Assembly (NCBI GenBank): GCA_045589215.1 | Contig: JAZNOQ010000028.1 | Location: forward strand, 1-38,383 | Origin: Eubacteriales bacterium | GTDB taxonomy: Bacteria > Bacillota > Clostridia > Oscillospirales > CAG-272 | DNA: 38,383 nt | Direction of reading: 5' to 3' | Shown here: positions 6,036 through 15,670 of the stretch, piece after piece | Position numbering within the stretch: position 1 is the first letter of the stretch | Layout: every line of letters starts with the position of its first letter | Notes under the pieces: model-generated | Database searches by the model: none | What the model saw: the letters and a program-made list of their open reading frames with translations, nothing else | What the model was told of the DNA's origin: nothing | Position numbers and translations under genes: made by a program

Positions 6036-7874
6036 TTACCGAACACCCATAAAGTCCTTGACGCGGCGCTCGATCTCGCCGCCCGACAGCTCGGACAGCT
6101 TCACGTATTCGCATCCCGATCTTTCTGCGAGCTTTTTTGCAAGCTCGAAGCGGATGCGTCCGGTTTCGGTATCAAGAAGAAGCAGATTGATCTTCTCCCC
6201 GACGATGCGCGAGGCGATCTCCACCGCCTCCTCGAAGGGATCTCCCCCCGCCATCGAGACGTTTGCACGCCCGTCCGACAGCAGGATGATATACGGAAGG
6301 ATCTCCTTATTCCGCGCCCGCGCCGCCTTTAAGAGCTCGTACGACCGTGTCAGCCCTGCCGAAAGCGGCGTTTTTCCGCCTGTTCTCATTGAGGAAAGGC
6401 ATTTTGTCGCAAGGTCGACGCTTCGCGTGAGGGGCAGAACGAGCCTCGCGTCCTCTCCGCGGAAGGTGAGGATCCCCACCGTGTCGCGCTTCTGATACGC
6501 GTCGGTCAGAAGAGAAAGGACTGCTCCCTTCACCGCCGCCATACGCTTTCCGACGCCCATCGAGGCGCTTGCATCCACACAGAATAAGATCGTCGCACCC
6601 GTGCGCTGCTCGCGCACCTTCTCCCTGATGTCGGAGCTTCGCACCGTCACAGCAAGCGTTTCGCCCTCTCGTTTCGGATGAAGAACTGCCTGACGGATCG
6701 TCGCGTCGAGTGCGATATCGCGTGCCTTTTCCTTCGGAATACGGTCGCGGATATAGCGTCCGCGCGCCGTACCGCTTCTGACCTTGGCACGCTTTCCGCT
6801 TCCCGATGCGCTTTTTGCCTCCACGAAACGAAGCTCAAGCGGAATGCTTTCGATCTCCTCGACATCGCTTCCGCTGTCGCGGTCTGCACCGCTTTGCGGC
6901 GTGCTTTGGCTCGACTGCATTTCGGGCTCCTTCAGCTCCTGCTCCGAGTGCCGCTCGGGCGGCTCGCTTTCACTCTGCTCCTCGGGGGGCATCTCCTCCT
7001 CGAAATTCGGAGGCGGAAGCTCGATCGCTTCGCGGATGCGGTGCGGAAGCACGTACTGTGCGGCTTCTCGGATCTCGTTTTCATGGACCTCGGTGTGTCC
7101 GTCGAGTGCTGCGATCGCGCGCGCCGTCTCGGTGAGGATCAATTCGGCGCGGTGTCCCGCGCAGTTGCCCGTTCGGGCAAGCTCTGCCGAAAAGCGCAAT
7201 GCATCCTCCCCGACCTCTACCGAGGGTAGCAGCATTACTGCCGCTTCGACCTTTTCGCGCAGTGCATCGGTCTCCTTTTGCCACGACGCGCGGAAGGCGA
7301 TCGGATCGTTTTCATAAAGCAGCCGTCTCCGCAGCACCTCGCATCGCTTCGCGGGATCCTTTTCGCCCGACACCGCAACGTACATTCCGAAGCGGTCGAG
7401 CAGATGCCCCCGTAGCTGTCCCTCCTCGGGGTTCATCGTACCGATGAGCGCAAAGCGCGCGGGCTGTTCCTCGGAAAGTCCTTCTCTTTCAATGCGATTT
7501 ACGCCGCTTGAGGAGACCTCGAGAAGGATATTCGCAATATGCTCGGAGAGAAGATTGATCTCGTCCACGTAAAGAATGTTTCCGTCTGCCTCTGAGAGGA
7601 TCCCGCGCTCGGACGCGCGCCGCCCCTCCTTCATCATCGCCTCGACGTCAATGCTTCCGACAAGTCGGTCGGCGGTGACGTTCAGCGGAAGCTCACAAAG
7701 CCGCCGCGACGGAAAAAGCTCGGGCAGTCCCCTGACAAGCGTCGATTTCGCACTTCCCTTTTCTCCGCTCACAAGCACGCCGCCGATCCTCGGATGGACG
7801 AGGCAAAGGAGAAGAGCTCGCTTGAGCTTTTCCTGCCCGACGACTGCGCTGAAGGGATAAACCTCAGATCTCAT
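6036..7874 (-). CDS. Class I chelatase D subunit (ChlD/BchD-like): AAA+ module, acidic Pro-rich linker, vWA domain
   Basis: [36 protein letters not shown], linker [48 protein letters not shown]. Start ATG 7874 overlaps the chlI-like stop. Confidence 0.9.
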
Positions 7875-8886
7875 AGGCTTCGATGCGTGCGTAGATCTCG
7901 TCAAGGTCGATCACGCCCTCCTCAAACGGACGGCGGCGCATTCTGTGCGGAAGCGCAAGGCGCGCGGCAACGAGAATATCTTCCTTTTCAACGCGGTCGC
8001 TTCCTCTGTACGCGGCGTTTGCGATCGCCGCCTTCAGCACGGTGATATCGGCGCGGTGACCGTCCACACCGATCGCGATCGCAAGCTCGGCAACTGCAAG
8101 GAGGCAGGCATCCGAATACGTAACGCCCGAAAGTCGCTCCTGTGCCTCCTTGATGCGGCGTCCAAGCGCTTCCTGCTCGTCCGTATAGCTCTCTACAAAG
8201 GCATCGGGATCGCTTTCAAAGGAAAGCCGTCTCTTGACAATCTCCATTCTCTGCCTCGTGTCACTCTCACCCGCGACGTCGACAACAAGTCCGAAGCGGT
8301 CGAGAAGCTGGGGACGAAGATCGCCCTCCTCGGGGTTCATCGTTCCGATCAGGACAAAGCGCGACGGATGTGCGTAGGAGATGCCCTCACGCTCGATCGA
8401 ATTCACGCCCATCGCGGCGGCGTCAAGCAGAAGGTCGACGACGTGATCGTCGAGAAGATTGACCTCGTCCACGTAGAGGATATTGCGGTTCGCATCGGCA
8501 AGGATGCCCGCTTCAAAGCGTTTTTCTCCGTGCTTCAGGGCGTGCTCAATGTCGACCGTTCCGACAACGCGGTCCTCGGTCGCACTGACGGGCAGGTTTA
8601 CGACGCGCATCCGCCCTTTCTTACTCGTTCTCTCTCCCCGCGCGCGGCACTCCTCACAAAGGTGGGACGGATCCTCGGGATCGCAGGAAAAACGGCATCC
8701 CTCGACCTCCTGTCGGATCGGCATCACGTCTGCAAGGGCGCGAACGGCGGTCGATTTCGCCGTTCCCTTTTCTCCGCGGATCAGCACGCCGCCGATGCTC
8801 GGCGAAATGACGTTCAGAATGAGCGCTCTTTTCATATCCTCCTGCCCTACAATGGCAGAAAAGGGGTAGTTCGGTTGTTTCTTCAT
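7864..8886 (-). CDS. Class I chelatase I subunit (ChlI/BchI-like AAA+ ATPase)
   Basis: [10 protein letters not shown], Walker [22 protein letters not shown], Walker [48 protein letters not shown]-coupled to the upstream gene. Confidence 0.93.
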
Positions 8887-11800
8887 ATCGTACCTTCCAA
8901 GTCGTTTTCAAGTTCAAGGTAGCAGCTTCGAATTCGTTCGAGCTGCTCCTCGGTTGCATCCCAATAGCCGCGGTCGCTGTACTCCATCATCTGTTCAAGG
9001 ATCTTCATATACGCGTGGGGATTGTTTTCGGTCATGCGGCGGCGCATCGCTTCGTCCTCGACGTATTTCGCGTCAAGCTCGTTATAGATCCACTCGTCGA
9101 CACTTCCCGTGGTTGCGGCAAGTCCCATGATATTTTCAAATCGGTCGGAGATCTCTTGCGCACCGTGAGCCGAATGTGCAAGCATTCCGTCGATCCACTT
9201 CGGGTTCAGGACACGGGTGCGGATACCGCGCGCGATCGACTTATCGACCGTTTCGGTGTACAGCTCCTTACCTGCGGTATCCGTGATGTACATTTTCGCC
9301 TTTTCGCCCCGCACACGCTCGACCGATTTCGAAAGCCCTCCGAAATATTCGAAGTAGTGGTCGAGATCGGTGATCTCGTATTCGTTCGAGCTGCGAAGCT
9401 GAGAGACGATATCAACGCACCGAAGCTGCTCCTCATACAGTCCGTCCGCAGAAACGCCGCGCATACGGCGGTTGTAGACGTGGCTGACGCGGTCGGCAAA
9501 GACCTCTCCGGGCTGCTCCTCCGTTTCCCAACCGTGGTTCTGGAAGAACTTCGTAAGTCGGCTTCCGTACTGCCCCTCGGCAGGGCCGAAGATGCGGGAG
9601 ACCGAAAGCGTTTTCGCGTCCTCCTCGCGAAGCCCCTTCCGTATCAGCTCTGCGTAGAGAGCATCCGCGTGCGCCTTCAGGTGATTTTCCTCGGGGCTTT
9701 CATCGAGTGCGGCGATCTCCTCAAAAAGGTCGGACAGCGTGTCGATGAGGTTCGGATACATATCGCGGAAGAAGCCACAGATGTTCACGGTCACGTCAAT
9801 ACGCGGCCGCAGAAGCTCCCCCTTCGGAATGATCTCATATTTCCGTCCGCGCGCCGAGGCGATGAGGCGAACGCCGAGATAGGTGAGGATCTGCGCAAAG
9901 GTCTCGCCCTGCGTGCGTGAGGTCTCAAGCCCCCACAGAACGACCGCGACGGAGGACGGATATGCGCCCGCTTCCTTTTTGTACGCCTCGAGTGTATTCT
10001 CCGCGATCCTCTTGCCTCGCTCGTATGCAGTTGCCGTCGGCACGAGCTTCGGGTCGAACTGATAGAGGTTATAGCCTGCGGGAAGCACTGCGGGGTTTCG
10101 GTATATGTCACCCGCAAGGCGCGCGGGGATATATTCGCCCGACAAGGCAGCGAGGAGGCTCTGCATCTCGCAATTCTCACGGCACGCCTCTCTGACGGTG
10201 CTTTCGTCGACGTCACCGCCGAAGGATTTGCGGAGTCCCGAGAGATACTCGTTCTCCTCCTCCTCCGTGTACGGTGTGCCGAAGACGTGAAGTCCCCTCG
10301 GTATGAGACTATGCTCCATACGGTAGAGCTCCTCTTCAAGCTCCTCCGTGTCTGTCGAGAGCTTCAGCTCCTCTGCAAGCGTCCTGATCCGCGCAAGCAC
10401 GTCGGGCGCACTCTGCGGTGCAAGATGAAGTGCCTGACGGTAGTTGTTCAGCTCCTCCGCAAGCGTCGCGTGACCGCCGTACAGCCCGCCCTCAACAAAC
10501 ACAGGCGGCTGATATCCGACCGTCAGGGCGTGCGAGCGGCGCTTTGCGATCGTTGACTCTGCAGGGTTACCGCAGTAGTAAAGATAAATGTGCGGAAGTC
10601 CCGCGAGCAGGCGGTCGGGATAGCACTTCCCGCTCATTCCCGCCTCCTTCCCGGGGAGGAATTCGAGCGTTCCGTGCGTTCCGACGTGTACGACCGCATC
10701 GGCCTTGAACTCCTCGCGGAGCCACTCGTAGAACGCAACGTACTGATGGTGCGGCGGGAGATCTTTATCGTGATAGCTCGCGCCCTCGCTCCCTTCTCCG
10801 CTTCTTGCGGGCTGAAGTCCGACGAAAACGTTCCCCGAGATCATTCCCGGGATAAGGAAATCCCTGCCCTCGACCATCACCGTTCCGGGGGATTTACCCC
10901 ACTTTTCCGTGACCGCGTCGTCGGGGGTATATTTTTTCGCGGGATAGAGGATCATTCCGTCTGTTCCCGAGGCGAATCTCCCCGAGTTGACCGCCTTGCC
11001 CGCCGTGAAGTGTGCGAGGAGATCCTCCTTCGTGACGTCCCCTACCGTATAGCCTTCCTTCTTCAGCCGTGCGAAGATCTCTGACACCGACGTGAAGGTA
11101 TCGAGAAAAGCTCCGCCGAAGAGATTGTCCTCTCCGGGCGGGTAGTTATAACAGATGAGTGCCACGCGCTTCTCCGCATTTTGCTTTCTGCGGAGCGCGA
11201 TCTGTTTTTCAACGATCGTGCAAAGCCGATCGACGCGCTCGTCGATCACGGTCAGCTCCTCGACACTGACGTCAAATCGGCGATCCGTTTTCGGCTCGCA
11301 CATCGCGCCGACGGGGATCGTATAGATCGATCCGTCGAGCTCGGGCATCAGCATCGAGATCATGATCTCGGTCGAGGTACAGCCCTGCACCGAGCTTTCC
11401 CATTCGGAGACCGTTCGCCGCGACAGGAAGAAGGGGTGCAGATAGGGCGCACCGATCTCACGCAGGAGCTTCGTTCCCTCCTCTGCGGCACCGCCCATCG
11501 GACCCGCACCGAGACGGAAGGACATAAAATTGAGGATCACGTCGGGGGCTTTCGGCAATTCCTTTGTGAGAATACCGCGAAGCGTTTCGACGCTTTCGGG
11601 GCTTGCGCCCGACATTGCGATCGGCAATACGTTCAGAGTGCGTTCCATACGGCGCATAATTTCCGCGACGCACGACGAGGTGTCGGTCGGGTAAAGATGC
11701 GCGTAAAAAAGCATCACGACCGTTCCGCGCTCCATATCCCATCCGTGCGCCTCGGAAAATTCCTTGAAGCTATCGAACTTGACCATTCCGTCGGGAAGTG

Positions 11801-15635: not shown

Positions 15636-15641
15636 GAATGC

Positions 15642-15670
15642 ATTATAACACGCGAAAAAATGGCTGTCAA
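15642..15670 (-). promoter_or_regulatory. Consensus sigma-A promoter of the ABC-chelatase operon
   Basis: TTGACA-17 nt-TATAAT with extended -10 (TGn). Confidence 0.88.

Follow-up and report, generated by a model that had tools for sequence, protein, structure and literature searches.

An operon joining an ABC importer to a three-subunit class I chelatase in a clostridial genome without a detected tetrapyrrole pathway

We analysed a stretch of 38,383 nucleotides (positions 1 to 38,383 of contig JAZNOQ010000028.1, assembly GCA_045589215.1; hereafter the window) from a Eubacteriales bacterium of the lineage CAG-272, and in particular a six-gene operon on its minus strand that encodes the binding lipoprotein, permease and ATPase of an ATP-binding cassette (ABC) importer together with the H, I and D subunits of a class I chelatase. 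The operon is a member of a module type that has already been described, and its local peculiarities are a host without a tetrapyrrole pathway and an unclassified leader. Judged by its sequence, the H subunit is assigned to a clade of its own, distinct from bona fide BchH, CobN and HmuS, and its active site looks porphyrin-type. We infer from these features that the ligand of the importer is a tetrapyrrole, and likewise which one it is and in which direction the chelatase runs. To the release of metal from an imported metalloporphyrin in this organism, namely of iron from haem, we give a probability of roughly 0.35, and this reading stands narrowly ahead of one based on corrinoids and cobalt.

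Placement and active site of the H subunit

Which kind of chelatase does the operon encode? The H subunit reached neither of the curated cut-offs of the neighbouring families, scoring 814.6 bits against a cut-off of 829 with the BchH model TIGR02025 and 591.5 bits against 822.05 with the CobN model TIGR02257. Among the sequences in the PDB, its best match was ChlH (4zhj, 526.7 bits), followed by CobN (437 and 411 bits) and HmuS (9d26, 336 bits). As references we used six sequences from annotated plasmid records that were vouched for by their gene context: two BchH from bchFNBHLM clusters, two CobN from cobW-cobN-cobG clusters, a Haloferax CobN, and an HmuS from an hmuY-receptor-hmuS-TUV locus. 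Identity to H was 29-31% for BchH, 26-31% for CobN and 25.6% for HmuS. The family of the window's H split from all six with a support of 100, both in a FastTree tree of 84 rows (the window, 77 related loci and the references; three loci with an H frame shorter than 1050 amino acids were dropped) and in an IQ-TREE quick tree of 22 rows, in which it grouped weakly with BchH (support 78). An earlier note on this DNA, made from the letters alone, had left room for H to be a bona fide CobN, and H does not nest there.

The loop of domain V reads D-L-D-H-Y-[YF]-E-[YF]-F-G-G in this family, with D-H-Y-F-E in the window, and L-S-L-D-H-V-Y-E-F-M-G-G in the HmuS reference, which is from Bacteroides finegoldii. 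At the same position the two BchH references have D-H-Y-F-D and the three CobN references have no histidine. The histidine and glutamate of the motif were invariant in 30 of 30 homologues that had been gathered irrespective of the motif, and a second motif, H-x-G-T-H-G, is common to the window's H and HmuS. According to a study of HmuS (PMC12583661), this protein is a proven haem dechelatase in which the motif histidine and glutamate line the active site; the motif histidine and a histidine of the superfamily-wide H-x-G-T-H-G hold the central cation, the glutamate hydrogen-bonds to the motif histidine, and a motif of the L-S-L-D-H-x-x-E-F-M-G-G type (His-1209/Glu-1212) is stated to be conserved in the family. 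That study also notes that annotation is not yet feasible for the majority of the bacterial and archaeal clusters in the superfamily.

The N-terminus of the window's H, M-K-L-T-F-V-T-V-S, contains no hydrophobic stretch, signal or anchor, and H would therefore be cytoplasmic, as its ATP-using I and D partners require. Together with the intact Walker B and MIDAS motifs of I and D, this fits an ATP-using cytoplasmic enzyme. The HmuS reference has a membrane anchor, and the window's H is gapped across the methionine-rich stretch of HmuS in the alignment.

Tetrapyrrole pathways and B12 in the host

The host assembly consists of 1.85 Mb in 174 contigs and is 81% complete, which limits every genome-level absence reported here. 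Its only CobN-family gene is the one in the operon, and it gave one TP_methylase match, where a corrin pathway would give several. No CbiK, CbiB, ALAD or CobS was found in it, and tblastn with CbiK, CbiD, CbiG, CbiJ, CbiET and two methylases from a related locus (L015) returned nothing. Despite the incompleteness, a hidden tetrapyrrole pathway is unlikely, because many independent markers were missed. The earlier note had suggested that the ring comes from outside, and the genome, with no corrin, haem or chlorophyll pathway detected, bears this out: since no tetrapyrrole is made in the host, any ring that H binds must be imported. The closest relative of the window (G247) also lacks CbiD, CbiK and CbiX. 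The window itself had been described as free of bch/chl, cob/cbi and hem genes, and we found no member of these families among the 26 window open reading frames (ORFs) scanned, a set that leaves out small ORFs.

The host genome does encode a cobalamin-dependent methionine synthase, MetH, with B12-binding domains, and we read the host as a B12 auxotroph. Its single cobalamin riboswitch lies on another contig (C157:27205-27357, 34.6 bits), and the genes under it encode a DUF4430 lipoprotein and a multi-pass membrane protein of 205 amino acids (L085 336-1653), which are probably the B12 uptake pair of the host. The permease in the window is the sole FecCD match of the genome above the Pfam cut-off. 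An AraC-type regulator with both B12-binding domains is encoded elsewhere in the genome, on contig C123 (L089 219-1856). DNA nearly identical to the window recurs in animal-gut metagenome contigs from several studies; four of 20 metagenome runs hold at least half of the sampled words, and one of these runs may be the source of the window.

Linkage of importer and chelatase in related loci

Is the joining of importer and chelatase peculiar to this genome? We scanned a collection of 185,579 species, one genome per species, with family-specific peptide patterns, by which intermediate sequences may have been missed. Among the 558 stretches that matched, 546 encode relatives of H, and the module is common, not rare, with H relatives in at least 546 stretches of the collection. 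The results at the level of loci rest on the best 80 of these 546, whose ORFs were labelled by blastp against the six window proteins. Clostridia frequently encode homologues of H with about 50% identity, which are automatically annotated as CobN or magnesium-chelatase H, and identity rises to 78-84% in the nearest relatives.

In the 58-row clade that contains the window, ABC genes stand beside the chelatase in 50 of the 57 other loci, two loci are without them, and five end at a contig edge; the linkage on which the earlier note had built is thus conserved. The order binding protein-permease-ATPase-H-I-D recurs in Clostridia, in one Dehalococcoidales, in one Thermoleophilia and in one spirochaete, and the order in Bacillaceae and Paenibacillaceae is ABC-I-D-H. 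Additional sampling of Bacillaceae gave a single new carrier among 40 genomes.

Several further features were observed at these loci. A lipoprotein of 160-219 amino acids without a Pfam family is encoded 3' of D in 22 related loci (L005 16792-17352, L015 16736-17380, L009 16552-17199 and 19 others); its C-terminal domain is conserved, no homologue of it was found in the window's genome, and it may serve to capture the ligand of the module at the cell surface. In some loci (L019 16456-21212 and L014), D is followed by further, distant paralogues of H (28-34% identity) and by a gene for a radical SAM protein. In one Bacillaceae carrier, G270, the D gene is in two overlapping pieces (L100 7772-9662).

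Genomic settings of the relatives

The surroundings of the related operons point in two directions. In five of the six loci first tested, Rfam found a cobalamin riboswitch directly upstream of the operon. In the subclade of Bacillaceae and Paenibacillaceae, no cobalamin riboswitch was found in any of 14 loci, and clusters of Fur-like boxes, the best with one mismatch, lie upstream of Bacillaceae copies (L039 4125-4183, L040 4065-4123 and L043 3951-4120). A further Bacillaceae copy has a single box with two mismatches (L100 13594-13608). These boxes were scored against a Fur consensus, for which the background is 0.063 per 370 nucleotides; the lone sites with three mismatches that L017 and L071 contain do not exceed what chance would give and were rejected. 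In Bacillus caseinilyticus (L043 593-3427), genes for two NEAT-domain proteins and a sortase adjoin the operon divergently. In Clostridium sp. CS001 (L007 5531-7076), the operon is immediately preceded, in the same direction, by genes for a NEAT protein and a sortase; an IS200-type transposase gene is found just upstream of the NEAT gene, and the binding protein of L007 shares 67% identity with the one from a locus under riboswitch control. Among the 26 window ORFs scanned, to which this search was confined, none encodes a NEAT protein or a sortase.

At one locus (L020 2429-6007), a cobalamin riboswitch controls a CbiK with an N-terminal hydrophobic anchor, after which come genes for another set of binding protein, permease and ATPase; the unit is transcribed divergently to the ABC-H-I-D operon and is reminiscent of CbiK-like haem binders that are exported.

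The substrate-binding protein

What might the importer carry? Compared with its solved relatives, the binding protein scored highest with the siderophore binder CeuE (64 bits), followed by the haem binder ShuT (25.5 bits) and BtuF (21.7 bits). Its second-best NCBIfam model, after an archaeal one, was IsdE, with 59.9 bits against a cut-off of 298.65, which was not reached; nor did the importer reach those of the B12-importer models BtuF (36.9 against 234) and BtuC (254.6 against 461). An AlphaFold model of the binding protein, with a predicted local distance difference test score of 88.8, has the class III binding-protein fold. In a Foldseek search with this model, the list was led by CeuE, and the template modelling (TM) scores were 0.86 for IsdE, 0.82 for BtuF and 0.81 for CeuE. 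We rejected an assignment of the ligand from the fold, because siderophore, haem and B12 binders all fell within TM 0.74-0.87. The earlier note had regarded the protein as a binder of tetrapyrroles; sequence weakens that view, the nearest relatives being siderophore binders, and the fold scores are alike for all three classes. Bacillaceae binding proteins are about 25% identical to clostridial ones.

Operon layout and control region

With its flanking terminators the whole unit covers 5999-15761 on the minus strand, and its six genes, arranged head to tail, form a single transcription unit (Table 1). The promoter, long leader, six co-directional genes and terminators at both ends that the earlier note had described were all recovered, from the ORFs, their domains, the promoter with 12 of 12 consensus positions and the hairpins. 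Its overlapping stop and start codons were found between permease and ATPase (4 nucleotides), H and I (4 nucleotides), and I and D; between ATPase and H, the overlap requires a GTG at 12494 as the start of H. Gene callers put this start at 12368, 42 codons further in (P0001, 1161 amino acids), and the start at 12368 is likely. The spacer from the ATPase stop to this start comprises 118 nucleotides (12369-12486), and relatives have overlapping codons there. A promoter-like site with 10 of 12 consensus positions lies inside the ATPase gene, at 12770-12743.

Table 1. Coordinates of the operon and of its control elements in the window
Feature	Position	Strand	Basis and remarks
Substrate-binding lipoprotein	14355-15440	-	Peripla_BP_2 (Pfam, NCBIfam), cluster A-II fold; lipobox L-T-A-C at N-terminus
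FecCD/BtuC-type permease	13299-14306	-	FecCD (Pfam), NCBIfam
ABC ATPase	12487-13302	-	ABC_tran (Pfam); Walker A, Walker B and signature motif all present
Chelatase H (CobN/Mg-chelatase family)	8883-12368	-	CobN-Mg_chel, 1012 bits; open frame extends to 12494
Chelatase I	7864-8886	-	ChlI-type AAA+ (Pfam, NCBIfam); Walker B intact
Chelatase D	6036-7904	-	ChlD-type AAA+, acidic/proline-rich linker, vWA with D-x-S-x-S MIDAS; Walker B
Sigma-70-type promoter	15642-15670	-	12/12 consensus positions plus TG extension
Leader, about 195 nucleotides	15441-15636	-	Ends in a terminator-like hairpin (15489-15465) immediately ahead of the ribosome-binding site
Terminator-like hairpin at the end of the preceding, FrhB/FdhB-like gene	15733-15761	-	13 pairs, T run
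Terminator-like hairpin closing the operon, 3' of D	5999-6032	-	15 pairs

The promoter is the only one with 12 of 12 positions in 5500-16500, a region in which five promoter-like sites were found against 4.0 expected. The hairpin at 15733-15761 would insulate the operon from transcription upstream. The hairpin inside the leader is an addition to what the earlier note had described. In a genome of the same genus (G032), the promoter is identical and the leader with its hairpin is conserved (leader copy at L084 905-1148), and metagenome contigs show few strain variants of the control region. Rfam gave no match to the leader, either at its gathering threshold or with the limit relaxed to E<=10, and a cobalamin riboswitch was found in it neither by Rfam nor by a model built from the riboswitches of the relatives. 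A hit to the SpF36 small RNA (32.4 bits against a threshold of 48) was rejected, being sub-threshold and sitting on the terminator of the preceding gene. Two pattern scans of metagenome contigs gave no further copy of the leader, and blastn against the 80 related loci and the host's own genome gave the same-genus copy only. The leader copies known are therefore two, the window's and that of the same-genus genome, too few for judging covariation, and the overall fold energy is ordinary (z-score -0.45). The leader is presumably regulatory. It occupies the position at which orthologous operons have a cobalamin riboswitch.

The neighbours of the operon are unrelated to it: it is flanked on one side by genes of the indolepyruvate-oxidoreductase type, an aminotransferase and an HtrA protease, and the opposite flank holds genes for polysaccharide synthesis. 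The gene preceding the operon is an FrhB/FdhB-like ORF (15769-17178). Across the whole window, Rfam gave a single match that reached the gathering threshold, a tRNA gene (36044-36116, 58.6 bits).

Comparison with known systems

As a type of system the operon is not new, because riboswitch-controlled operons combining ABC transporter, CobN and magnesium-chelatase-subunit genes have been published (PMC4285132). According to that report, operon-2 of Dehalobacter restrictus PER-K23 is controlled by a riboswitch, encodes FepBCD/BtuCDE-like transporters, CbiZ, CobN and magnesium-chelatase subunits, shares synteny with Acetobacterium woodii, and responds to corrinoid starvation with a 346-fold increase in transcript and a 46-fold increase in protein. 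Compared by description, both operons belong to anaerobic Firmicutes and unite a FecCD/Btu-type importer, a CobN-family subunit and AAA+/vWA subunits; the window's operon differs in that it has another conserved leader instead of a cobalamin riboswitch, has no CbiZ, and resides in a host without a cobamide pathway. Another report mentions a genomic island of Fusobacterium with CbiZ, CobN and ChlI/ChlD (PMC5630926), and in 2003 Rodionov et al. suggested that CobN-like 'BtuS' proteins act in salvage, as cited in PMC6460266. That most of the close orthologues belong to the B12 regulon is not visible from the window alone.

The module shares with HmuS its superfamily, the motifs D-H-x-x-E-[FY]-x-G-G and H-x-G-T-H-G, the link to uptake, and a gut anaerobe as a host that is unable to make haem. 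HmuS, however, is anchored in the membrane, contains a methionine-rich insertion, uses NADH and has no I or D partners, and its context consists of HmuY, a TonB-dependent receptor and MotA/ExbB-like genes (layout in L091) instead of an ABC importer with I and D. The suggestion that the operon is a Gram-positive counterpart of hmu therefore stands in part: the D-H-x-x-E motif and the NEAT and Fur settings of relatives speak for it, and the missing anchor and methionine-rich insertion against it. With the BchH/ChlH-BchI-BchD enzymes the module has in common the three-subunit architecture, and they gave the best profile and structure-sequence scores for H; in contrast to them it has D-H-x-x-E rather than D-H-x-x-D, with no bch genes or porphyrin synthesis. 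CobN-CobS-CobT is likewise an ATP-driven class I chelatase of the same superfamily, and the B12 regulon includes relatives of the operon, but the partners here are of the ChlI/ChlD type, and neither CobW, CobG nor any further cob context surrounds them, unlike in two loci examined for comparison (L094 and L095).

The Isd system resembles the module in that import depends on a lipoprotein and a FecCD permease, and orthologous modules adjoin NEAT and sortase genes in L007 and L043; it differs in the NEAT and sortase genes, which the scanned window ORFs lack, and in the missed IsdE cut-off. Iron release in Isd is performed by the oxygen-dependent IsdG and IsdI and not by a chelatase. Our literature searches returned only a general review for NEAT together with CobN, and nothing for magnesium chelatase together with haem uptake in Clostridia.

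Discussion

How might these six proteins work together? We propose that a lipoprotein-dependent FecCD-type ABC importer is coupled to a class I chelatase that has three subunits, works in the cytoplasm and is driven by ATP (AAA+/vWA). The ring would reach H from outside, most simply via the co-transcribed importer, and H, I and D would then change its metal state in the cytoplasm, acting as an ATP-assisted reverse chelatase that releases iron from haem as an imported metalloporphyrin. We prefer haem because of the HmuS-type motif, the NEAT and Fur settings of relatives, the missing riboswitch, the separate riboswitch-controlled B12 uptake, and the lack of a downstream cobamide enzyme. A number of observations weigh against this reading. 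H is without the membrane anchor and the methionine-rich insertion of HmuS and is as distant from it as stated above, and the binding protein is nearest in sequence to CeuE. The same protein is 49-56% identical to its counterparts in riboswitch contexts and only about 26% identical to the Bacillaceae proteins in Fur or NEAT contexts; the other window proteins for which we compared riboswitch-controlled clostridial copies gave 49-56% (H) and 68-76% (permease). No Fur-like box was found in the promoter or leader of the window, even with up to four mismatches, and the NEAT arrangement in Clostridium sp. CS001 may be secondary because of the adjoining transposase. Cytochrome bd, the one haem-using enzyme sought, was absent from the host genome, and the case for an exogenous ring rests throughout on absences from an 81%-complete assembly. 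To our knowledge, no class I chelatase with I and D partners has been shown to run in reverse.

The remaining points against haem are those that favour corrinoids. The operon could be a corrinoid and cobalt salvage module of the B12 regulon, in which the importer takes up a corrinoid or another cobalt-related tetrapyrrole, with or without its metal, H, I and D insert or exchange cobalt, and the riboswitch has been swapped for another leader in this lineage; we regard this as possible, and hold it tentatively. A cobalamin riboswitch precedes 20 of the 26 assessable loci in the 33-row subclade of the window (six more have less than 300 nucleotides of upstream flank) and 29 of 57 loci of the wider clade, as counted with a model that was built from riboswitches found by Rfam and run over 82 sources, together with a second Rfam run. 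Several riboswitch loci of the window's subclade run directly into cbiD-G-J, which suggests a B12-linked ligand. Ruminococcus-type loci have the order riboswitch-ABC-CbiK-ABC-H-I-D-lipoprotein-CbiD-methylase-CbiG-methylase-CbiJ-CbiET, so that CbiK, here without a signal peptide, is interleaved with the module. CbiD is encoded in 37 of 50 carrier genomes, and the 13 without it include the closest relative, G247. In addition, operon-2 of Dehalobacter restrictus is induced by corrinoid starvation (see above), the best match of both I and D is the 'putative cobaltochelatase' model TIGR02442, and the host needs B12 for MetH. Against salvage of corrinoids, however, the host lacks the later cobamide steps tested (CbiB and CobS), so only a complete metal-free cobamide would be useful to it; the operon itself has no riboswitch, whereas the host's other candidate for B12 uptake keeps one; and the motifs of H resemble those of BchH and HmuS and not those of the three CobN references. 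A cross-tabulation further showed that 36 of the 37 CbiD-positive carriers also have CbiK or CbiX, and therefore the class I enzyme is an extra in B12 producers and not their sole or required cobalt chelatase.

The same count bears on the view taken by automatic annotation, in which relatives are called 'cobaltochelatase CobN' or 'magnesium chelatase H' and H, I and D would serve biosynthesis, as the cobalt (CobN-ChlID) or magnesium chelatase of a de novo pathway in the cell itself. The score with the BchH model, just below its cut-off, agrees with this view. Nevertheless, B12-making carriers are already supplied with CbiK or CbiX, both curated cut-offs were missed, the family splits from BchH and CobN with full support, and the host has no pathway that could feed such an enzyme; for this genome, the explanation is close to refuted.

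Could the importer instead take up a metal chelate that is not a tetrapyrrole, such as a siderophore-like complex of iron, cobalt or nickel, with the chelatase using or extracting the metal or acting on a ring that arrives otherwise? CeuE, which belongs to the catecholate-siderophore binders, is both the nearest solved relative of the binding protein and the top of the Foldseek list, and Paenibacillus-type loci adjoin permeases of the Mn/Zn-type ABC-3 family (in L053 843-3559, two such permeases and a metallo-beta-lactamase-fold protein are encoded just upstream of the module). On the other hand, the fold does not discriminate, with IsdE and BtuF fitting as well as CeuE, the host has no endogenous ring to take the delivered metal, and we know of no member of the CobN/ChlH family that acts on anything but tetrapyrroles. 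We consider such a ligand unlikely. Less probable still is that the operon reached this lineage by transfer and is now a decaying or idle leftover without function there. Its distribution is patchy, the binding protein occurring in one of 200 other sampled genomes of the taxonomic family, and that one of the same genus, and the riboswitch of the relatives is missing here; but the six frames are open, their catalytic motifs are intact, the same-genus genome has kept both promoter and leader, H is well conserved in its nearest relatives, and the DNA recurs nearly unchanged in gut metagenomes of several studies.

Beyond this organism, iron release from haem may be one case of a wider activity, in which the I/D motor of Gram-positive anaerobes would drive H to pull iron, or in the riboswitch-controlled copies another metal, from an imported metallotetrapyrrole, and in which the leader of this genus would be a new class of RNA. 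We offer this extension as a speculation that is more doubtful than the proposal for the operon itself.

What do these findings mean for the biology of the family? Chelatases joined to uptake in this way are widespread among anaerobes and for twenty years have carried the labels 'cobaltochelatase' or 'magnesium chelatase'; either outcome, removal of metal or re-metallation, would correct this very common annotation. Because the host makes no tetrapyrrole, the enzyme can act only on an imported substrate, and the operon is thus a clean natural test case. If metal is stripped from haem or another metallotetrapyrrole, gut Firmicutes would have an oxygen-free means of harvesting iron beside the HmuS of Bacteroidota. 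Such a route to haem iron would be distinct from HmuS, from ChuW/HutW and from haem oxygenases, and the chelatase motor would be shown to be able to work in reverse. If, instead, salvaged rings are re-metallated, the module would have a bearing on the cross-feeding of B12 and porphyrins in the gut.

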